From a virus: 56,620 nucleotides of DNA. This document shows positions 11,035 to 48,770 of this stretch, piece after piece. The notes under the pieces are model-generated. The model ran no database searches. It was not told where the DNA came from and saw only the letters and a program-made list of their open reading frames with translations. Location: the IMG/VR virus record IMGVR_UViG_3300031566_000038. One strand, 5' to 3'. A program made the translations under genes and the position numbers. Each line of letters starts with the position of its first letter. Position 1 is the first letter of the stretch.

Positions 11035-11610
11035 TTGTCTACACTGGTGGTTACGTTCAAAGCGGAAGCTGGCGGAATAACACTTTTCGAAGTACCGTTT
11101 AGTGTTCAATTACCTATCCAAATTCCGATACCGTTCCCGCCCCCGGACCCACTAGATTTTCTTTTAGGGCTACTCCTAGACGCTTTAGGGCTGCCGTTCC
11201 CTTTGGAGATTCCATCTTTGCCTTGCCCTTTTGAATTAGATCTATTATCTTTGTTACCACCGATACCGCCGATCATAATTCCCGGCTTGCCGCCTATACC
11301 GTTCCCTCCGCCTGACCCCTTAGATTTTCTAATAGGAGCGTTGTTAAATGCTTTGGGTTTGGCGTTTCCATTGGAGATTCCATCGCTGCCGTGCCCATTT
11401 GAATTGGATTTGTTATCGCTCTTACCGCCGATACCACCGATCATAATTCCCGGCTTGCCGCCTATACCGTTCCCTCCGCCTGACCCCTTAGATTTTCTAA
11501 TAGGAGCGTTGCTCGACTTCCTAGGTATCCCTGATATCGAGATACCTTCTTTGCCGTGTCCGTTCCCGGCAGGGATAACTTTGACAATAGACGTAAAGGT
11601 AATCCCTTAA
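11035..11610 (+). CDS. Pro/Leu/Ile-rich tandem-repeat protein (3 x 56 aa)
   Basis: TTG start with a GGGAGA RBS 6 nt upstream. Repeat copies 1 and 2 differ at 32 codons; 28 are synonymous in this frame (4 non-synonymous), whereas the same changes are mostly non-synonymous in the antisense ORF. Confidence 0.55.
   Translation: MSTLVVTFKAEAGGITLFEVPFSVQLPIQIPIPFPPPDPLDFLLGLLLDALGLPFPLEIPSLPCPFELDLLSLLPPIPPIIIPGLPPIPFPPPDPLDFLIGALLNALGLAFPLEIPSLPCPFELDLLSLLPPIPPIIIPGLPPIPFPPPDPLDFLIGALLDFLGIPDIEIPSLPCPFPAGITLTIDVKVIP
11131..11590. repeat. tandem 168-bp repeat, about 2.7 copies
   Basis: Units start at 11131, 11299 and 11467 and differ by point substitutions. Confidence 0.8.
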
Positions 11611-22182: not shown

Positions 22183-22224
22183 TTACTTACCTCACCTGAT
22201 TCAGTCACCTAAGACTTTTAACGA

Positions 22225-26875: not shown

Positions 26876-27035
26876 GAATCGGAAACCGAATACGCTTGAC
26901 AAAAACCCCGCACCGGTATTACTTTGAATACTCAACCAACGCCAAGGAGCGAACGTGCTACTTCACTACATTCAAATTAGCTTTATTAAGCCTAAGCGGA
27001 TGTTCTGAAGCGTTTCCTGTCTTAAAGATATTAAA

Positions 27036-27065
27036 CGCCTAAGAACATCTTTCTTAGGCGTTTTT
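27036..27065 (+). terminator. rho-independent terminator
   Basis: 10-bp perfect stem CGCCTAAGAA/TTCTTAGGCG, loop CATCT, then TTTTT. Confidence 0.6.
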
Positions 27066-27073
27066 GTATTTAA

Positions 27074-27146
27074 GCCAGGGTAGCTCAGTAGGTAGAGCAC
27101 TAGGTCGAAACCCTAGGTGTCAGCGGTTCAAATCCGCTCTTCGGCG
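27074..27146 (+). tRNA. tRNA-Phe(GAA), atypical acceptor stem
   Basis: Cloverleaf read by hand. D-arm GCTCAGTAGGTAGAGC; anticodon stem CTAGG/CCTAG with loop TCGAAAC (anticodon GAA); T-arm AGCGG-TTCAAAT-CCGCT. The acceptor stem GCCAGGG/CTTCGGC has one A-C mismatch and two G-U pairs. No encoded CCA. Confidence 0.5.
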
Positions 27147-27159
27147 CTAAATTATTTAA

Positions 27160-27231
27160 TGGGTAGTAGCTCAGTGGTAGAGCGCAAGTCTGATAAACTT
27201 GAGGTCGGCTGTTCAACCCAGCCCTACCCAA
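27160..27231 (+). tRNA. tRNA-Ile(GAT)
   Basis: Perfect cloverleaf. Acceptor TGGGTAG/CTACCCA; D-arm GCTC-AGTGGTA-GAGC; anticodon stem CAAGT/ACTTG with loop CTGATAA; T-arm GGCTG-TTCAACC-CAGCC. No encoded CCA. Confidence 0.8.
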
Positions 27232-27367
27232 CTATTTTTACTATGGAGGTCTTAAGAAAATGAATACTACGACAACGCTAAGGCAAACCGGTAAGTCCTT
27301 CAAGAAATCTACCAAAGAGATTCTTCTCAAACATAAATAGCCCTCTATACATAGTCTGATATCTTAT

Positions 27368-27456
27368 GGGCTAGTTGTCGCTAGTCCATCCTGCTGGAGA
27401 TGTAGAGCATGGCACTTTTAATGCCAGGGTCGCAAGTTCGAATCTTGTCTAGCTCT
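27368..27456 (+). tRNA. tRNA-like element, Lys(TTT)-type anticodon arm, aberrant D region (possible pseudogene or unusual tRNA)
   Basis: Acceptor GGGCTAG/CTAGCTC (6 Watson-Crick + 1 G-U). Canonical T-arm GCAAG-TTCGAAT-CTTGT. Anticodon arm TGGCA-CTTTTAA-TGCCA. About 16 extra nt, including the palindrome CTAGTTGTCGCTAG, sit where the D-arm should be. A T-run follows. Confidence 0.35.
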
Positions 27457-27487: not shown

Positions 27488-27709
27488 ATGAAATATTATA
27501 AGCAATGTACTTTTAGGCAAGAAAAAACGGTCACCACGGCTTGGATAGAAGAGCGTGGGGCTAAGGTGGGTAAGAAGGTGAAGTTCAAAGATGCGGACAA
27601 CGACGATTGGTGGGACGTGATTTCGGTGGGGGAAGACCGCCGCCCGGAAACCGCCGTCAAAATTTCAGAGAGATCTTACCTACACCAAAGGTCTATGTCG
27701 GACATCTAA
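27488..27709 (+). CDS. hypothetical protein
   Basis: 73-aa ORF with an AAGGAA RBS. Confidence 0.4.
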   Translation: MKYYKQCTFRQEKTVTTAWIEERGAKVGKKVKFKDADNDDWWDVISVGEDRRPETAVKISERSYLHQRSMSDI

Positions 27710-27756
27710 CGCCTGGAAAAATCCCCTGGGGCAAAACAAAGAATTTTGCTTGTAAC
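27707..27756. repeat. ~50-bp repeated element, copy A (inverted relative to 34526-34576)
   Basis: ACGCCTGGAAAAATCCCCTGGGGCAAAACAAAGAATTTTGCTTGTAACC. About 96% identical to the reverse complement of 34526-34576. Confidence 0.7.
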
Positions 27757-27852
27757 CTTCCGATATAATAAAGCTCTACTGATCTACGTTAGTCGGGTAT
27801 TTTTGGGACTTCGCCAGGGTTACTTTTTTAGAAACGAACCTAGGGGGATGGG

Positions 27853-28440
27853 ATGAGAAATCTGGTAGCTGCGTTGCATCGGGTCTTAGCGATCACAGAA
27901 GATGAAACAAAAAAGTTTATCTCCGACCACGGTGGGCGGCCCACCCAAAAGGATTTGGACAAGTACGTTCAAGACAAGGGTATGGATAAGGATGAGATCT
28001 CAGAGATCATGTACGATCTCGTGAAGAATCAAATAGGTGGTTTGGAAGCGCCGAAACCGAAGCCTAAATCTAAGTTAGATACTGAAGCGATTAAAAAATT
28101 GGCGAAAGCTACGGGCCTCGAATACGAAACGCACAACTATGAGGTTCGCTTCTTTCTCGAAAGCATGATCTACGTCGATGCTACTAAGATGACGGAAGAC
28201 GAATACGACGAGATGGAAAAAGAGATCAAAAGTTTTTCCTTAAAAGGCGAAGGTTATGAAATTTTCGCTTGGAATGATGTTAGCGGGTACGATTATTGGT
28301 CTCAGCCGGATGAAGAGACAAATTATATTCAGATAGAAGTTAAAGTAGACAAAGATAAGATCGAATCGATAGACCCCAAGCAATTGAAGTTTGATGTAGA
28401 AGATGCTCAGAATACTTTTCACCAGTGGGATAACGGATGA
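27853..28440 (+). CDS. hypothetical acidic protein
   Basis: 195 aa with an AGGGGGATGGG RBS. Confidence 0.5.
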   Translation: MRNLVAALHRVLAITEDETKKFISDHGGRPTQKDLDKYVQDKGMDKDEISEIMYDLVKNQIGGLEAPKPKPKSKLDTEAIKKLAKATGLEYETHNYEVRFFLESMIYVDATKMTEDEYDEMEKEIKSFSLKGEGYEIFAWNDVSGYDYWSQPDEETNYIQIEVKVDKDKIESIDPKQLKFDVEDAQNTFHQWDNG

Positions 28441-28985: not shown

Positions 28986-29306
28986 GTGAGCGAGCATAAA
29001 GATTTTATCGTTGCTAAGACCTTGGAAGCTTTCGAGCGGTTCGATCCGGTGGTGGAAGAAACGTTACCCCAAGAGCCAGGGTCGCCTTCGGTGGCCCCGG
29101 ACGGTGTGCCTGTCTTCGACTTAGAAACGATGAGAAATCTGGAGCTTCACAAAGATAAAGTGATCCACGCCCCTGATTTTGAAGCGTTTATGGATCTCTT
29201 ACAAAACGTAGCTACGGAAGAGAAACTAAACCCGGCTCAAGACTTTGACAAGTTAGCCTCGGTGTTGAACCGGTTTAGAATAGACGAAGGGCTGGACCCA
29301 CTTTAG
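28986..29306 (+). CDS. hypothetical protein
   Basis: 106-aa ORF from a GTG start. Confidence 0.4.
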   Translation: MSEHKDFIVAKTLEAFERFDPVVEETLPQEPGSPSVAPDGVPVFDLETMRNLELHKDKVIHAPDFEAFMDLLQNVATEEKLNPAQDFDKLASVLNRFRIDEGLDPL

Positions 29307-29566
29307 TATCTAGCTCGTGGTTGTCTTTCTTGCGCTTCGTTGACTTTGATGGTTCTGCCGTCGAATTCCTTGCCGTCTAATCCGTGCATGGCGTCGTCAG
29401 CGTCCTGGTCGCTAGAGTAGGTTACAAAACCAAACCCCCTAGACCGATCTGTCTCACGATCGAAAATCACCTTTGCTTCGGTGACTGTACCGTATTGCTC
29501 AAATTTAGCTAACAATGAATCATTGTCAGTGCCCCACGAGAGACCACCCACGAATAACTTTTTCAT
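29303..29566 (-). CDS. RRM-type RNA-binding protein (RNP-1/RNP-2)
   Basis: RNP-2 KLFVGGL and RNP-1 RGFGFVTY in an ~87-aa single RRM. The chosen ATG has an AAGAGGA RBS 8 nt upstream. The ORF-track N-terminal extension (MFCKIKRRLQFQVKR) to 29620 was trimmed; its ATG 9 nt upstream (29575) sits directly against that same RBS. Confidence 0.65.
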   Translation of the reverse strand: MKKLFVGGLSWGTDNDSLLAKFEQYGTVTEAKVIFDRETDRSRGFGFVTYSSDQDADDAMHGLDGKEFDGRTIKVNEAQERQPRARY

Positions 29567-33715: not shown

Positions 33716-34495
33716 ATGAATCAGCTAAGCGGCGAGTGTTTGCTCATCGGGGATGTTGCGGGTCAATACGAAGCTTTGATGAGCCTCTTAAAGTCCTGTC
33801 CTGACGTTCTCCCGGTGAGTGTTGGTGACATGATCGACCGAGGGCATGACTCCAAAAAGGTAGTCGACTTTTTCAGAGACCACGGCAAAAGGTTGAAAGG
33901 CAACCACGAGCATATGTGCGTGGACTTCATCCAAGATAGAAAATATTACGGCAGTGGTATCTGGTTTCGTAACGGGGGCGAAGCGACGGTAGAATCCTAC
34001 TTAGGTGAATCAATCCGAGATTTAGAGACTGAATTTTGGAATGAATACGAAGACGGCTCTGCACAGGATTTCAACAACGAGATCAGAGAAAAGCTAAAAG
34101 CTACCGGGTTGGACAAAGAGCTAGATGATTTGCCCTTGTACTTTGAACTCGACGGTGGTGGTATCGTCACCCACGCCCCGATCCGAGCCGGGTTGACGTT
34201 GGATACCGTTTGCGAATTAGGGGTGCGAGGTTTCACCAGCTTCAGTAAAGCAGAAGCCAAAGCCGACCAGTCAGTGATCTGGAACCGCTACCCGCCCTGC
34301 AAAATGGAAGGCAAGTACCAAATCTTTGGCCATAACTCGATGTGGGGTCATTGCTTTATGAAGCACGACGAGGACTCGAATTTATCAAGGGACAATTTTA
34401 AAGAACCTTGGGGTGTTTGCTTGGATGATTCCCGAGCAATGAGATTAACCGCTATGCACTGGCCGTCCAAAAAGATCTATCAAGAAGTATTTTGA
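33716..34495 (+). CDS. PPP-family Ser/Thr phosphatase (calcineurin-like metallophosphoesterase)
   Basis: GDVAG...GDMIDRG...GNHE motif series. Confidence 0.7.
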   Translation: MNQLSGECLLIGDVAGQYEALMSLLKSCPDVLPVSVGDMIDRGHDSKKVVDFFRDHGKRLKGNHEHMCVDFIQDRKYYGSGIWFRNGGEATVESYLGESIRDLETEFWNEYEDGSAQDFNNEIREKLKATGLDKELDDLPLYFELDGGGIVTHAPIRAGLTLDTVCELGVRGFTSFSKAEAKADQSVIWNRYPPCKMEGKYQIFGHNSMWGHCFMKHDEDSNLSRDNFKEPWGVCLDDSRAMRLTAMHWPSKKIYQEVF

Positions 34496-34525
34496 GGCGA
34501 CTAAGGTAGATCAGTAGAGCTTTAT

Positions 34526-34576
34526 TATTTCATAAGGTTACAAGCAAAATTCTTGTTTTGCCCCAGGGGATTTTTT
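34526..34576. repeat. ~50-bp repeated element, copy B (inverted relative to 27707-27756)
   Basis: GGTTACAAGCAAAATTCTTGTTTTGCCCCAGGGGATTTTTTCAGGCGT. Hairpin GCAAAA/TTTTGC plus a T-run. Lies between convergent genes. Confidence 0.7.
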
Positions 34577-34587
34577 CAGGCGTGGGC

Positions 34588-35121
34588 TCAAAAAGACTTC
34601 CGCTTTTTAAGCTGTTTGATGATGATAGATTCTTCACCTAGATCGATTTGGGCTGTGGGGAATCTTTTGGCGAGATCCGCTAACACACACCCCCGGACGT
34701 AAGCTTCTTGGGAAAGCTTAAGCTCTTTGCTTCGAGCTTCGATCAAGGTCTTGTGTTGGCGGCGGATAGTAGAAGCCACGTTGACTAGCTCGTTAGGTTC
34801 GTGGCCGCCTCTATCCTTCTGGGTAATCATAGCGTTCCGAACCTGCACCGCTAGATCCAAACACCTTTGCTTGGCACCTTCGTTCTCTTTGAAGATGATC
34901 GACAAGGAGTCGATGACCTTGGCTTGGCCGTGGTGCTTAACCATCAACTTGTAAGCGACGTTGTGCAAAGCGTCGTGGCACCCCGGACAAAGGTCTATCA
35001 AATTATCGATAGTGTCTTTACCGCCTAGAGCCCTGGGGGTTTTGTGGTGTGAGTGCTTGTGGATAACCGGGTAAGCCTCTTCACAACACCCACACCTGAA
35101 GATTTTGTTGAAGTCGTTCAC
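34588..35121 (-). CDS. HNH endonuclease
   Basis: CGCC...HKHSHHKTPRALGG...N..DLCPGCH..LH fits the HNH motif. The likely GTG start overlaps the TGA stop of the upstream methyltransferase gene (GTGA). Confidence 0.55.
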   Translation of the reverse strand: MNDFNKIFRCGCCEEAYPVIHKHSHHKTPRALGGKDTIDNLIDLCPGCHDALHNVAYKLMVKHHGQAKVIDSLSIIFKENEGAKQRCLDLAVQVRNAMITQKDRGGHEPNELVNVASTIRRQHKTLIEARSKELKLSQEAYVRGCVLADLAKRFPTAQIDLGEESIIIKQLKKRKSF

Positions 35122-42242: not shown

Positions 42243-44813
42243 ATGAGCATTCGATTTTCCGGCATTTTGACGATCGATACCGTAACGGTAGTAACATCGC
42301 CTTATGTAGTAGAAGCTACATTTTCCGATTCGAGGGGCTATTTCGATGAAACTTTGATTGCTGTCGATAACGTGATTATCGACGCAAACAAAAATCGTTA
42401 TGTAGTCACCGACGTTACTAGCGTTACACCTTTGATCCTAGAATTAGAGTGGGACGACCTCGATGCGCCCGCCCAACCCACCACGGGCGATGGTATTATC
42501 GGTGTGGTTTCTTCCGCTAGGGAGCTTTTAGAAGTTACCCCGGACGCACCAACCGGTGTGGCAACCGCAGCCCGTAACATCGATTTCTTCAAAAACTTAG
42601 ATACCACACCAGATCTAGTTACCGGACCCGCTGGAGTCGCCGGAGCTACCGGCTTTGGCTTCGGCCAACAAGGTCTCACCGGCCCTTCCGGCGCTACAGG
42701 TATCGCAGGTATCATAGGACCACAAGGTGGCACAGGGCTAGCGGGTGTGGCTGGTGTGGCGGGAGCCGTCGGGACCAAAGGCGCTACCGGTCTCGGTGGG
42801 ACCAAAGGCGCTACCGGTACTAAAGGCAGCAACGGCACCCCAGGTGTTGACGGTGTAACAGGCCTTACCGGAGCCGTAGGAGCAATCGGAAGCACTGGTA
42901 TGGTAGGTTCCCAAGGATCTCAAGGTCTCACTGGAATTGACGGGACCAAAGGTGACACCGGAGCGGGCGGTTTGGTTGGCGACACCGGAGCGGGCGGCCA
43001 ACAAGGCCTAACCGGATTATCAGGTTCCACTGGTCTTCAAGGCGTCCAAGGCAACATAGGATCGCAAGGTACGACCGGAACAAGCGGTGCTACAGGATTA
43101 CTAGGTGGCACAGGTTTAATAGGTCAAACAGGGGTTTCGATAACCGGCCCACGAGGACACACCGGACCTTTCGGTCCTACAGGTTTAGCGGGAAGCACCG
43201 GAAGCCAAGGTGATACGGGTTCTCTGGGACTAAAAGGCGATACAGGCGTAGCGGGGACCAACGGCACCACCGGAGCGGGCGGCCAACAAGGGCAAACGGG
43301 AGCGTTAGGTCAAACCGGAGCCGATGGGGGTGTAGGCCAACAAGGTATCACAGGATTCGGCGGTACTACAGGCTTACTAGGAAGCACCGGAGCAACAGGA
43401 ATCCAAGGGTCCGTAGGCCAACAAGGTCTCACAGGCCCCGCAGGTGTAGGCGTAACAGGATCACAAGGTCAAACAGGTGCCGTAGTTCAAGGTGATACTG
43501 GAGTTTCGATAACCGGTCAGACCGGTTTGGCAGGACCGACGGGTAGTCAAGGATCGACAGGCCCGTTAGGTCTTGTTGGAGCCACCGGAGCAAGCGGCAC
43601 CAAAGGCGATACAGGTACGATCGGCGTACAAGGAAATACAGGCCTTAGTTTGCAGGGAAGCACAGGCCTTCAAGGTTCACAAGGTACAACCGGATTCAAT
43701 GGTAACGCTGGCTCTACAGGCGTAGCTGGCTTGCAAGGTGATACGGGTACAATAGGTGGTCAAGGCTCTGCCGGTGCTACAGGCGTTAACGGTCTTCAAG
43801 GGATAACTGGCGGTGTTGGTATTCCCGGTGAAACCGGAACACAAGGTGTAGTAGGAAATGCGGGAGCAACGGGTGTTGTCGGTACTCAGGGTATAACAGG
43901 ATTAAATGGTACTACAGGTATAGTAGGTAGTACAGGTGCTACTGGAATTAGCGGAGCCACCGGAGCCTTTGGAGTAATCGGAGCTACCGGAAGTCAGGGC
44001 ACCACGGGCGTAGCTGGAATCCAAGGAGCCCAAGGTTCCACCGGAGCCCAAGGCCAACAAGGAAATACCGGCCCAATAGGCACCACAGGTTCTATGGGTT
44101 CGCAAGGACAGCAAGGTCTGACCGGTGGACTCGGGCTCCAAGGTTTGACGGGATTATTAGGCGGCACTGGCGTACAAGGTGGCGTAGGAGTTGATGGTAC
44201 CACCGGGGTGAAAGGGCCTACAGGAGTACAGGGAGCGACGGGTCAACGAGGCTTCACAGGCATAGGCATTATAGGACCGCCAGGACCGATAGGCTCCACC
44301 GGATTCACTGGAACTACAGGTGTTCCCGGCGAAACTGGTGCTGGTTTACAAGGCCAAACCGGAGCGGGGGCCACAGGTCCAGAGGGTCACACAGGTGTCC
44401 AAGGAATTGCGGGAGCCACCGGCCCACAAGGTATAGCCAGAACCGCTTACAACTGGACGATCTCCAATAGTTCAGGTTTAATCGTTGGTACTTATATCGT
44501 TTACTTTGCGATGGAAGCGGTGACGATCGACGAGGTCGTGGTGACGATGATTAATTCAGGTACAGGCGGCACCGGCGCAACCCACTTTGAATTCTATAAA
44601 TTGGGAGCTTCCATTTTACCGACTTCACCACCGGTCGGTACCGGCGACTTCACGGTCATCATCCCGGCAGCGGGCGTGACGGTTATGAACGGCACCAAAG
44701 TAACCACCTTAGCTTTAGGTTTGGCCCTAAACGAATCTTTGGTAGTAGGGATCTCAGCGGCCCCGGACACCCCAGGTAATAACGCTTTGATTTCGATTCG
44801 AGCTTTGTTGTAG
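42243..44813 (+). CDS. collagen-like triple-helix repeat protein (fibre-like)
   Basis: About 600 aa of Gly-X-Y repeats rich in T/Q/A/V, from roughly residue 125 to 730, flanked by non-collagenous N- and C-terminal domains. Confidence 0.75.
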   Translation: MSIRFSGILTIDTVTVVTSPYVVEATFSDSRGYFDETLIAVDNVIIDANKNRYVVTDVTSVTPLILELEWDDLDAPAQPTTGDGIIGVVSSARELLEVTPDAPTGVATAARNIDFFKNLDTTPDLVTGPAGVAGATGFGFGQQGLTGPSGATGIAGIIGPQGGTGLAGVAGVAGAVGTKGATGLGGTKGATGTKGSNGTPGVDGVTGLTGAVGAIGSTGMVGSQGSQGLTGIDGTKGDTGAGGLVGDTGAGGQQGLTGLSGSTGLQGVQGNIGSQGTTGTSGATGLLGGTGLIGQTGVSITGPRGHTGPFGPTGLAGSTGSQGDTGSLGLKGDTGVAGTNGTTGAGGQQGQTGALGQTGADGGVGQQGITGFGGTTGLLGSTGATGIQGSVGQQGLTGPAGVGVTGSQGQTGAVVQGDTGVSITGQTGLAGPTGSQGSTGPLGLVGATGASGTKGDTGTIGVQGNTGLSLQGSTGLQGSQGTTGFNGNAGSTGVAGLQGDTGTIGGQGSAGATGVNGLQGITGGVGIPGETGTQGVVGNAGATGVVGTQGITGLNGTTGIVGSTGATGISGATGAFGVIGATGSQGTTGVAGIQGAQGSTGAQGQQGNTGPIGTTGSMGSQGQQGLTGGLGLQGLTGLLGGTGVQGGVGVDGTTGVKGPTGVQGATGQRGFTGIGIIGPPGPIGSTGFTGTTGVPGETGAGLQGQTGAGATGPEGHTGVQGIAGATGPQGIARTAYNWTISNSSGLIVGTYIVYFAMEAVTIDEVVVTMINSGTGGTGATHFEFYKLGASILPTSPPVGTGDFTVIIPAAGVTVMNGTKVTTLALGLALNESLVVGISAAPDTPGNNALISIRALL

Positions 44814-46016: not shown

Positions 46017-46270
46017 AATTAAAAAGAAATTCACCTTCGAACCGTTGCGGCTCAACGCATTAATGAGATGTAGTAGAACACGTTATAGAAACTCCTTGCG
46101 GTGTTAAAATCCGATGTTAGATTATAACTATTCCGAACGTTCAGGCGGAGGGTACGGGGAAGGGCTACAGTCCTTTTTTTTAGTGGGGAAGTCCCCCTTT
46201 TTCCTTCAAGGTCTATTCGGAACTTACGCTCCCGGTGTGGGAGTTAACAATTGAAAAGAGGGAGACTCTT

Positions 46271-47383
46271 ATGATTCTCAAGCGCAAACCTTATCGTGTG
46301 TCGATCGTCCTTGGTCGATTTCAAGTTTTCCACAAAGCCCACAAAAGATTATTAGACGAAGCGTTCACGTTGGCGGATATCGTTTTGGTTGTTTTAGGTT
46401 CGCACCAAGCGGCTTTGAACATCAAAAACCCGTTCACCACCGACGAAAGAGAAGAGATGATCCGCAAGGTCTACCCCGACCGAGATATCCATTTCGTGGT
46501 GGTGCCGGATCATATGTACGACGACGACCGCTGGCTCCTAGAAGTTCAAGCCAAGGTCCGGCAAAAGATTACGGCGCTTGGGATCGAAACTGAAATTGTC
46601 ATCCGTCCTTGGGAAGATCGAGCGGTAGCCCCTCCCAAAGTGAATAAAGATATTTGTATCTGCGGCTACTACAAAGATTCGAGTTCTTATTACCTCGACT
46701 ACTACAAAAACATATGGGGTTTCGAAACCCACGTAGCTTCTATCAACATTTCTAGCACCGACATCCGAACCGCTTTGTTTACCGATGGGCGAGTCCAGCC
46801 TGAGCAAAGTAATTTGCATTGGGCGCAACAAGTTCCCGACCCGGTCGTGGATTGGGTCTCTGCTAATTTTTTAGGCACTCCAAAGTTTGACTACCTCAAA
46901 GAAGAGTACGATTTCCTTGTTGATTATAAGGAGAAGTGGAACCCTACGGGCGATCGGCAATGGATCACCGGGGACGCTATAGTGGTTCAAAATGGTTTGG
47001 TCTTGATGGTGATTCGAAAAAATATGCCTGGCAAGGGGTTGTGGGCTTTACCTGGCGGTTTCATCAAGAAAACCGAAACGATCGACAACGGGGTGCTTAG
47101 GGAACTCAAAGAAGAGACCGTGATCGGGATGCACAAACACGAGCTTCGCAAACACTTCGTGGGTAGTGCAGTGTTCGACCACCCTGACAGAGACCTCCGG
47201 GGTAGGATCGTAACTCACGGGCACTTCTTCAAGCTGGGGAAGGACATCCCGCTACCGCACGTCAAAGGTAGCGACGATGCTTTGAAAGCTTTTTGGGTGC
47301 CGATAAACGAAGTCATCCAGAACGCCCACAACGTCTACGGCGATCATATCCATATCCTAAATTATTTGTCTCGTTTCAACTAA
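46271..47383 (+). CDS. nadM: bifunctional NMN adenylyltransferase / Nudix hydrolase (NadM/NatV-like)
   Basis: N-terminal LGRFQVFHKAH (GRFQPFH nucleotidyltransferase motif). Nudix box GGFIKKTETIDNGVLRELKEETV. GAGGGAGA RBS. Confidence 0.75.
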   Translation: MILKRKPYRVSIVLGRFQVFHKAHKRLLDEAFTLADIVLVVLGSHQAALNIKNPFTTDEREEMIRKVYPDRDIHFVVVPDHMYDDDRWLLEVQAKVRQKITALGIETEIVIRPWEDRAVAPPKVNKDICICGYYKDSSSYYLDYYKNIWGFETHVASINISSTDIRTALFTDGRVQPEQSNLHWAQQVPDPVVDWVSANFLGTPKFDYLKEEYDFLVDYKEKWNPTGDRQWITGDAIVVQNGLVLMVIRKNMPGKGLWALPGGFIKKTETIDNGVLRELKEETVIGMHKHELRKHFVGSAVFDHPDRDLRGRIVTHGHFFKLGKDIPLPHVKGSDDALKAFWVPINEVIQNAHNVYGDHIHILNYLSRFN

Positions 47384-47393
47384 GAGGTCTGTT

Positions 47394-48770
47394 ATGTCTG
47401 ATTTTTACAGCTTTTTAAGCAATCTTATTTTTCTCACTGACTCTTACAAGGTCTCCCACTGGCGTCAATACCCGAAGTCTATCACCAAGATGTTATCTTA
47501 TTTTTCCAGCCGGGGTGGGTTGTACCCTGAAACGGTAGCGAATGTTTTGCTCCACTACCAAATGAAGCGGTTGGAAGGGGTGCAAATCACCCAAGAAAAG
47601 ATCGAAGAAGCGGCGGAACTTTTTAAATTTCACTTCGGTGATGAAAGCATTTTCAACCGTGCGGGTTGGGAATATATCCTAAAGGAGCACGGTGGTCGGC
47701 TACCGTTGAAGATCAAAGCGGTCGCCGAAGGCACGGTAGTACCCCACGGCAATGTTTTGATTGTGGCTGAAAGCACCGATCCTAAATGTCCTTGGGTCAC
47801 CAACTACTTCGAAACCTTCATGGTGCAAAATTGGTACCCTTCCACGGTGGCTACTTTTTCGTACACGGCTAAGAATCTTATCAACCGCTACCTCGAAGAA
47901 ACCGGTGACCCTGCCGGTTTGCCTTACAAATTGCACGACTTCGGGGTCAGGGGCACTAGCAGCATGGAATCGGCAGCGATCGGTGGGGCGGCTCACCTCC
48001 TAAATTTCTCTGGCACCGACAACCTACCCGCTATGGCTTTGCTCAAAAAGTTCTACGGGGGGTACGTGGGGAACTCTATTCCGGCAGCGGAGCACTCCAC
48101 AGCGTGCTCTTGGATCAAAGAAAAAGATTTCTTCCGTCACATGATCGAAGAATTCCCAGGGATGGTAGCGGTGGTGTCCGATACCTATGACATCTACGAA
48201 GCTTGCCGGGTTTGGTCCACCGAGCTTAAAGACCAAGTTCTGGCCCGAAAAGACGGCTGTGTGGTTATCCGGCCTGACTCGGGTGACCCGCTAGAAGTCT
48301 TGGAAAAGATCTTCGAGATCCTAGGGGAGAACTTCAAGAACGAGATCGTGGTAAACAAAAAAGGTTACAGGGTATTACCACCCCAGGTGCGAGTGATCCA
48401 AGGAGATGGAGTAGACATAGAAGCTATCGGCGATATCTTAGAGATGCTGAAGTTGAAAGGTTGGTCGGCAGACAATATAGCTTTCGGCTGTGGTGGTGCT
48501 CTTTTACAAAAATTGAATAGGGACACTAATAAGTTTGCTTTCAAAGCGTCCGCCGTTTTGGACAACGGGGTATGGCGGGAAATAAGGAAGAACCCGGTCA
48601 CCGACCCCGGTAAAGCAAGCAAAGCGGGCTTATTAGATCTTGTCAAAATCGACGGAACCTTTACTACCACTTCACCTTCGGGGAATTCATTGCTTGCGGT
48701 AGTTTTCGAAAATGGTATGGTGCCGCCGAGCGATAGTCTGGAAACTATTCGCACCCGCTTAGTGGTCTAA
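47394..48770 (+). CDS. nadV: nicotinamide phosphoribosyltransferase (NAMPT/NadV)
   Basis: 458 aa. HDFGVRGTSSMESAAIGGAAHLLNFSGTDN is typical of NAMPT. Lies 10 nt after nadM. Confidence 0.8.
   Translation: MSDFYSFLSNLIFLTDSYKVSHWRQYPKSITKMLSYFSSRGGLYPETVANVLLHYQMKRLEGVQITQEKIEEAAELFKFHFGDESIFNRAGWEYILKEHGGRLPLKIKAVAEGTVVPHGNVLIVAESTDPKCPWVTNYFETFMVQNWYPSTVATFSYTAKNLINRYLEETGDPAGLPYKLHDFGVRGTSSMESAAIGGAAHLLNFSGTDNLPAMALLKKFYGGYVGNSIPAAEHSTACSWIKEKDFFRHMIEEFPGMVAVVSDTYDIYEACRVWSTELKDQVLARKDGCVVIRPDSGDPLEVLEKIFEILGENFKNEIVVNKKGYRVLPPQVRVIQGDGVDIEAIGDILEMLKLKGWSADNIAFGCGGALLQKLNRDTNKFAFKASAVLDNGVWREIRKNPVTDPGKASKAGLLDLVKIDGTFTTTSPSGNSLLAVVFENGMVPPSDSLETIRTRLVV

Follow-up and report, generated by a model that had tools for sequence, protein, structure and literature searches.

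Short transcription signals that travel between the accessory genes of large phages have been described in T4-like phages, where the PeSL (promoter-early stem-loop) cassettes were defined and tested (Arbiol et al. 2010, PMC2839356; Comeau et al. 2014, PMC4122927; PeSL / PmSL cassettes). Intrinsic bidirectional terminators, the REP/BIME and MITE repeats and the attC sites of integrons offer further points of comparison for a small repeat in an intergenic spacer. In phage lambda, the oop-type antisense promoter is located shortly past the 3' end of a convergent gene, into which it points back.

In this study, we describe a repeat of this size class in a window of 56,620 nucleotides, the whole stretch of DNA that was analysed (IMG/VR record IMGVR_UViG_3300031566_000038). 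The window is part of a large uncultured phage with a genome of at least 87 kb (longest contig 87.5 kb), which is only distantly related to any GenBank phage and carries genes for DnaB, NAD-salvage enzymes, collagen-like fibres and a vault-like protein. The group to which this phage belongs is not T4-like. A sequence-only reading of the window had noticed an element of about 50 bp, present twice in inverted orientation, and had suggested either a reused bidirectional terminator or regulatory module or a small mobile or recombination-prone repeat.

The repeat pair in the window

The inverted pair was borne out by the sequence at both sites. One copy, W1, occupies positions 27709-27795 on the plus strand (nhmmer E = 1e-27, with a profile-HMM envelope of 27702-27807), and the other, W2, occupies 34498-34583 on the minus strand (nhmmer E = 6e-27); both were delimited from the sequence and by repeat detection, and W2 also from its gene context. 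They are 91% identical over 87/88 nt in a gapped alignment, and were detected as two arm pairs, an ungapped one of 80 nt and one of 38 nt shifted by a 1-nt indel, while the runner-up among the inverted repeats of the window has a length of 37 nt and 76% identity. When each half of the element was searched at up to 3 mismatches, exactly the W1 and W2 sites were recovered, where shuffled sequences lead one to expect 0.00-0.08. The similarity of the two copies is far beyond chance.

The extent of the repeat needs some correction. The 49-mer first placed at 27707-27756 lies at 27709-27757, and its partner lies at 34583-34536 instead of 34526-34576, so that the second position was about 8-10 nt off. 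The differences reported between the copies were essentially right, being one G/A substitution (GGAAAAA vs GAAAAAA) and one indel of a loop A (CAAAGAA vs CAAGAA). The length of about 50 bp was too short, as the similarity runs about 38 nt further, through TTCCGATATAATAAAGCTCTACTGATCTACGTTAGTCG, and the unit measures about 88 nt, nearly double. Its sequence is unchanged in every fetched assembly that covers it (at least 6 metagenome samples; ENA, JGI, Logan). Some Logan contigs end inside the element, and we considered whether these ends might be transcript ends. They fall exactly where 31-mers cease to be unique and this idea was rejected; the contigs break there because W2 and W1 share 31-mers with a copy of the E2 type, described below.

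According to the gene map, both copies lie in intergenic spacers, as had been claimed. The spacer of W1 runs from the stop of a 73-aa gene (27707-27709), a member of the known phage family phrog_25356, to the start of a 195-aa gene at 27853, which opens a plus-strand operon of 195, 136, 49, 106 and 116 aa. Upstream of the 73-aa gene there are tRNA-Phe(GAA) and tRNA-Ile(GAT) genes at 27074-27232. A perfect hairpin with a 13-bp stem (27033-27063) directly precedes tRNA-Phe and is scored as a terminator on both strands, and a third tRNA-like match at 27393-27448 is weak (30 bits) and was not called by ARAGORN; the whole tRNA block (27033-27448 region) is absent from close relatives.

The 92-nt gap that W2 fills has a gene stop on either side, that of an HNH gene on the minus strand (34588-34590) and that of a convergent metallophosphatase gene on the plus strand (34493-34495). 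W2 begins 4 nt past the former stop and ends 2 nt short of the latter. The metallophosphatase gene (33716-34495) matches Pfam Metallophos and a NinI-like phrog. Past it lies a minus-strand operon for a 241-aa virion protein, a 128-aa protein, a subtilase, a 127-aa protein and a 5'-3' exonuclease. The module of convergent operons between the two copies, 6.7 kb long, is thus flanked by units that both point into it. We considered whether this segment might be inverted in some genomes and rejected the idea, as it has the same orientation in all long contigs (at least 4 samples) and in the related L014 lineage.

The 195-aa gene has a sole other homologue, a distant one, 47% identical in amino acids and located in a different phage region. 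A patch of 168 nt (27886-28053 of the window vs 8137-8304 of L045) is 80% identical in nucleotides between the two, which suggests a recent transfer of part of the gene. We rejected the idea that the 195-aa gene travels with the element, as this homologue sits in an operon with no element nearby.

Copies in related phages

Two related uncultured phage lineages (L014 and L021 / L025) hold six more copies, and the family thus counts eight. In L014, whose exonuclease shares 70% amino acid identity with that of the window, copy LA (5284-5384, plus strand) follows the HNH gene and copy LB (5943-6044, plus strand) separates the phosphatase gene from an extra 179-aa gene. Copy LC (12706-12606, minus strand) is preceded by tRNAs and an unrelated 82-aa gene, and downstream of it comes the gene orthologous to the 136-aa gene of the window. 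A degenerate copy, LD (17895-17793, minus strand), lies between a 199-aa gene and the DnaB gene. The remaining two, E1 (6316-6422) and E2 (7440-7550), both on the plus strand of L021, were found in L021 / L025 by a pattern scan of metagenomes, and adjoin a complete IscB element. The number of copies per lineage is 2-4, in the 14-78 kb examined for each.

The family does not reach far. More distant syntenic relatives (L018, L019, L020, L036, L039 and L040) have no copy. The 189-aa and 136-aa genes are adjacent without the element in L018, L019 and L036, in all of which the junction is covered; the HNH and phosphatase genes abut or overlap without it in L039 and L040, and are separated by a 95-aa gene in L036. 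There were 0 matches in IMG/VR to exact and degenerate patterns, none among the INPHARED phages in near or distant mode, and none in PLSDB. The only match in GTDB genomes, in an alphaproteobacterial MAG, was shown by nhmmer and BLAST to be due to chance and was discarded. Within the phage itself, the window and about 21 kb of its flanks (11.5 kb on the left and 10 kb on the right; about 78 kb in total) contain no further full copy, and none stands beside the IscB-less HEARO element at the window start, within 11.5 kb leftward, where one would be placed by analogy with L021. The sequence-only reading had been prepared to give up the element if it consisted of only two copies and was not conserved. 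Conservation in relatives was found, yet there are only two full copies in the sequence at hand for this phage.

Anatomy of the unit and its predicted promoter

The alignment of all eight copies (W1, W2, LA, LB, LC, LD, E1, E2) defines a unit of about 90-100 bp with two modules. The 5' module consists of ACGYC, an A-tract and a short palindrome. In W1 it lies at 27717-27731 on the plus strand, where the A-tract AAAAAT is followed by the 9-bp palindrome CCCCTGGGG (27723-27731); the palindrome of W2 is at 34569-34561, and in other copies its position is taken by CCCTATGGG, CTATAGG or CCTAGG. The A-tract and the palindromic character of this module are conserved, and its sequence is not.

The 3' module, of about 55 bp, starts with TAA(C/G), continues with 18 nt that hold (TG)nATAAT, and ends with CTCTACTGA. 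The TAA(C/G) box (TAAC at 27753-27756 on the plus strand in W1; 34540-34537 in W2) has the invariant columns T50, A51 and A52, and its distance to TCTACT is exactly 18 nt in every one of the eight copies. Between them, the alignment places a hexamer like a -10 box, TATAAT at 27764-27769 (plus strand) in W1 and AATAAT at 34529-34524 in W2. Its consensus, nATAAT, has A at position 2 and T at position 6 in seven copies each. A TG dinucleotide precedes it by one base in 5/8 copies, among them W2, where it takes the extended -10 position (34532-34531); W1 is without it. The best-conserved box of the unit is CTCTACT (27774-27780 on the plus strand in W1; 34519-34513 in W2), identical in all copies except the decayed LD, which reads CTAAACT, and with C71, T72, A75, C76 and T77 invariant. 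A leader of the form GTTACTTTT..AGAAAC is common to W1 and LC.

From this arrangement we infer that the 3' module is a portable promoter of the extended -10 type. Transcription would start at about 27775 in W1 and proceed rightward into the operon of the 195-aa to 116-aa genes. From W2 it would start at about 34518 and run leftward, antisense through the phosphatase gene and towards the operon from the 241-aa gene to the exonuclease gene. In such a promoter, CTCTACT would span approximately positions -2 to +5. Sigma-70 promoters do not usually have their best-conserved box where transcription is predicted to start, and CTCTACT may instead be a site at which a protein binds or the sign of another kind of promoter. 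No copy has a match to a -35 hexamer, the two-hexamer scan was negative at W1 and W2, and the window showed no gene for an RNA polymerase or a sigma factor.

The orientation of the copies complicates the picture. The predicted promoter aims at a downstream sense gene in W1, LC and E1, with 57 nt from the end of the repeat to the ATG of the 195-aa gene at W1, about 50 nt to the start codon at LC and about 210 nt at E1. In the other five (W2, LA, LB, LD and E2) it aims at the 3' end of a convergent gene, whose stop codon falls inside the unit at LA, LB and LD. Sorted by the neighbouring genes, W1 and LC lie in the sense direction and LB and LD in the antisense direction of tandem genes, W2, LA and E2 lie between convergent gene ends, and E1 lies between apparently divergent gene starts. 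No single oriented transcription signal fits all eight copies, and a role as promoter of the next gene fits only 3/8.

Several promoter classes were considered for the unit and rejected. A class used throughout the phage is one of them, as ATAATWAAGCTCTACTGA has no other match when up to 3 mismatches are allowed, and the intergenic CTACTAC sites before other operons have no upstream consensus in common with the element. A middle promoter with a T4 MotA box was prompted by TGCTT, which the window copies have 12 nt ahead of the -10 box but which is absent from the copies of L014 and from E1. The spacing fits a promoter of the ECF-sigma type (AAC-N18-TCT), but three copies have AAG and the window yielded no sigma gene; this class survives only within the proposal that follows.

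Another proposal, which we regard as improbable, is a new kind of cassette-border element in a phage group unrelated to T4, integron-like or oop-like, in which the TAA(C/G)-N18-CTCTACT core would be read by a phage factor and the unit would serve both for antisense control and as a crossover point. The factor that recognises the core would then be an unusual sigma, an RNA polymerase or a recombination protein, and antisense transcripts from beyond the stops of convergent accessory genes would time or silence those genes.

Terminator and RNA structure

The sequence-only reading had based its terminator on a hairpin, GCAAAA-n7-TTTTGC. This hairpin is present in W1 (27731-27749) and, with an n6 loop, in W2 (34561-34544), but it is not a consensus of the family, as E2 has a weakened GGTT version and LA, LB, LC, LD and E1 have none. 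Where it occurs it is weak, with 6-7 bp rich in A/U, and the folding energy does not differ from that of shuffled sequences (z = 0.06-0.32, both strands). The terminator scan reported nothing at W1 or W2, and RNAalifold found zero consensus pairs among the eight copies on either strand. Rfam 15 gave no match at the gathering threshold, and a permissive search returned one lncRNA at chance level (14.7 bits vs a gathering value of 70).

We therefore see only a slight chance that the unit is a bidirectional or reverse-strand intrinsic terminator, in which transcription of the genes ending at the unit would be stopped by the hairpin or, on the reverse strand, by the CCCCAGGGG palindrome with ATTTTTT behind it. 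It is true that at least one gene ends at the element in seven of the copies, that three copies lie between convergent genes, and that the reverse strand of every copy has a short palindrome and then a T-run. However, the palindromes of the family allow a stem of 3 bp at most, E1 lies between divergent gene starts, and the corresponding convergent HNH/phosphatase junction of distant relatives has no element. The terminator reading is unsupported because the hairpin is not conserved, no consensus structure exists, the folding energy is at the level of shuffles, and the same scan finds clear hairpins with 13-bp stems elsewhere in this phage, at 27033-27063 and 32803-32774.

Borders of accessory genes, recombination and decay

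Every copy borders genes that are unique to its lineage, namely the 73-aa, 195-aa, 82-aa and 179-aa genes, Tpt1 plus the 114-aa gene, and IscB. Two of these sets are bracketed by direct repeats: the 179-aa gene of L014 by LA and LB, and the cassette of Tpt1 (RNA 2'-phosphotransferase) and the 114-aa gene of L021 by E1 and E2. A probable vestige of a third copy in the window, TGATTCAGTCACCTAAGACTTTTAA at 22197-22221 on the plus strand, lies in a spacer of 42 nt that separates the DnaB-like gene from the 199-aa gene, and corresponds to the middle of LD. This assignment is tentative, as it comes from a synteny-anchored pairwise alignment only and the HMM does not detect it. Units are thus gained, lost and left to decay.

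Copies within one genome are much alike, with 91% identity for W1/W2 and 82% for LA/LB, whereas positional orthologues between genomes reach only 53-63% (W1/LC 53%; W2/LA and W2/LB 61-63%), which is about the same as the 38-59% of other orthologous spacers. Such a difference points to concerted evolution, most simply by gene conversion. Over the 55 nt at its 3' end, E2 has 96% identity to W2, while no relation is seen in its 5' part or in either flank. E2 is thus chimeric and a crossover has occurred inside the element; judging from this copy, recombination can act within units, between the two modules. We also tried W2 as a hybrid of LA (5') and LB (3') left by excision of the 179-aa gene, and rejected it, with identities of 62/50% in the 5' part and 69/69% in the 3' part. 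Products of inversion or cassette excision were not seen in any contig.

The suggestion of a small mobile or recombination-prone repeat, or of a regulatory module, is supported by the family in the relatives, by copy numbers and positions that vary with the lineage, by the lineage-specific gene borders, by the concerted evolution within genomes and by the one chimera with its internal crossover.

It is possible, though we think it unlikely, that the repeat is a functionless recombination scar or a selfish repeat, that is, a spacer duplicated along with accessory cassettes, with copies alike only through gene conversion and with no regulatory role. In favour of such a scar, the element is specific to its lineages and close syntenic relatives lack it, LD and the vestige in the window are decaying, the divergence between genomes is no lower than in other spacers, and the copies occur in all four transcriptional contexts. 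However, seven copies that disagree elsewhere at 35-50% of positions show no variation in several boxes or in the 18-nt spacing, the architecture of A-tract and palindrome is kept while the sequence of the 5' module changes, and the element is identical in all fetched assemblies of the window phage. These features suggest selection on parts of the unit, of which eight related copies are no proof.

There is a similarly slight chance, as low as that of the terminator, that the unit is the target of a dedicated enzyme, such as an attC-like site for site-specific recombination, a non-autonomous element of the MITE/PATE kind or a homing-endonuclease site. W2 and LA directly follow an HNH gene and E2 lies about 110 nt from the end of the IscB element, and a target site would agree with the short conserved palindromes, with the bracketing of cassettes by direct repeats and with the position of the E2 crossover between the two modules. 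Yet no nuclease gene adjoins W1, LC, LB, LD or E1, and the HNH gene keeps its syntenic place in distant relatives without the element and is therefore not travelling with it. As for a MITE, no terminal inverted repeats or target-site duplications are common to the eight copies, and a CTAACG/CGTTAG pair occurs only at W1. As for an integron attC site, there is no consensus pairing and the unit as a whole has no hairpin symmetry. Neither an integrase nor a transposase or TnpA was found in the window.

The explanation that we prefer, and to which we give about an even chance, is that the unit is a portable promoter and cassette-border repeat similar to PeSL, homogenised and shuffled by recombination, with a promoter activity that we infer. 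Such a unit would give inserted genes a transcription signal of their own and would offer patches of homology where cassettes are exchanged.

Other features of the phage

The window contains several further elements and genes that deserve mention. A HEARO / IscB omega RNA is located at 212-452 on the minus strand (Rfam RF02033, 122 bits), with no IscB ORF behind it, and is flanked by two near-identical hairpins, CCCCCTCCTTyAGGTGGGGG, at 17-40 and 424-447. In L021 (7652-9276), a full version of HEARO carries a 433-aa IscB (RRXRR + HNH), and related loci also occur in L027/L030; the window copy is therefore an ORF-deleted derivative. Some assemblies of the same phage (L030, L031, L033) have an empty site, in which a 293-aa ParB-like gene leads directly to the next gene, and the insertion is thus polymorphic in the population.

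The most over-represented 8-mer of the window is CTACTACA / TGTAGTAG, with 43 sites vs 1.7 expected, or about 1 per 1.3 kb. It occurs on both strands and in both orientations, mostly inside genes (e.g. 25058, 37894, 49582), and its antisense sites are confined to the stop-free frame. The octamer is also enriched in relatives (17 in L027, 8 in L014 and 11 in L045). A 168-nt unit is tandemly duplicated at 11125-11460, within the 11035-11610 region, as 2 copies with 79% identity.

Among the genes, one for an 856-aa collagen-repeat protein lies near a NAD-salvage pair of NMNAT/NUDIX and NAMPT (regions 42243-44813 and 46235-48770, both plus strand), and the collagen-repeat protein, which is tail-fibre-like, is the source of most direct-repeat families in the window. 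The vault-like gene (2489-5143, plus strand) is unusual for a phage. Its 884-aa product matches the shoulder and repeat domains of the major vault protein (PF11978, 3e-27; PF17795) and an SPFH/Band 7 domain. An RNA-recognition motif of eukaryote type (RRM_1) is present in an 87-aa protein (29303-29566, minus strand) and is kept in all relatives of the phage group.

Comparison with known systems

The resemblance to intrinsic bidirectional terminators lies in the location of the unit after stop codons or between convergent genes, and in a palindrome flanked by an A-run, which is a T-run on the opposite strand. The unit differs from them in having no stable or conserved stem and in placing the T-run after the palindrome on one strand, and one copy lies between divergent starts. 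With the lambda oop promoter it shares a position only, since W2, LA, LB, LD and E2 are aimed into the 3' end of a convergent gene; here, however, no short antisense RNA or terminator is defined and the same element is also found upstream of sense genes. REP/BIME, MITEs and integron attC sites are likewise intergenic repeats of about 100 bp beside stop codons that are associated with cassette borders, but the unit has neither the hairpin symmetry, terminal inverted repeats and target duplications nor the cognate recombinase of these systems. The RYYYAAC/GTTRRRY core sites of attC are not common to the copies, and strings that resemble them occur only at W1.

If the PeSL-like reading is true, mobile regulatory cassettes are not confined to the T4-like phages in which they were described, and cassettes are also shuffled in unrelated uncultured large phages, with a different sequence and a looser rule of orientation. 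The element would then mark the sites at which accessory genes are exchanged, among them tRNAs, RNA-repair enzymes and nucleases. This would aid the annotation of plastic regions in metagenomic phage genomes, in which such repeats also break short-read assemblies. On its own the finding is genuine but modest, with a putative function and a type of mechanism already described in T4-like phages.

The differences from PeSL are considerable. The phage described here is not T4-like, and has 2-4 copies in 14-78 kb per lineage where a T4-like genome has many. There is no conserved stem-loop terminator, although a G/C palindrome and an A-tract are conserved in its place, and where PeSL has sigma-70 -35 and -10 boxes about 17 nt apart, the unit has nATAAT, with TG in 5/8 copies, and no match to a -35 box. 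Five of the eight copies face the 3' end of a convergent gene and not a Shine-Dalgarno sequence and start codon, the best-conserved box is CTCTACT at the predicted start site, and there is no sequence similarity to the published PeSL consensus. With this incomplete match in stem-loop, -35 box, orientation and copy number, the element is likened to PeSL and therefore not filed as a member of that family.

The likeness nevertheless extends over the general plan. Both are short composite intergenic repeats (<100 bp) in plastic accessory regions of large phages of the lytic type, and both place an AT-rich stretch and a G/C palindromic motif upstream of a box of the -10 type. In both, copies bracket lineage-specific ORFs as direct repeats, and degraded copies stand beside indels in hyperplastic locations, represented here by LD and the vestige in the window. 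Recombination between and within copies, which for PeSL includes mini-circles and deletions, would be a further common trait, to which concerted evolution and the chimera E2 point indirectly in the present case. Taken with its cassette borders, its homogenisation and its predicted promoter, the unit as a whole would work much as PeSL cassettes do in T4-like phages.
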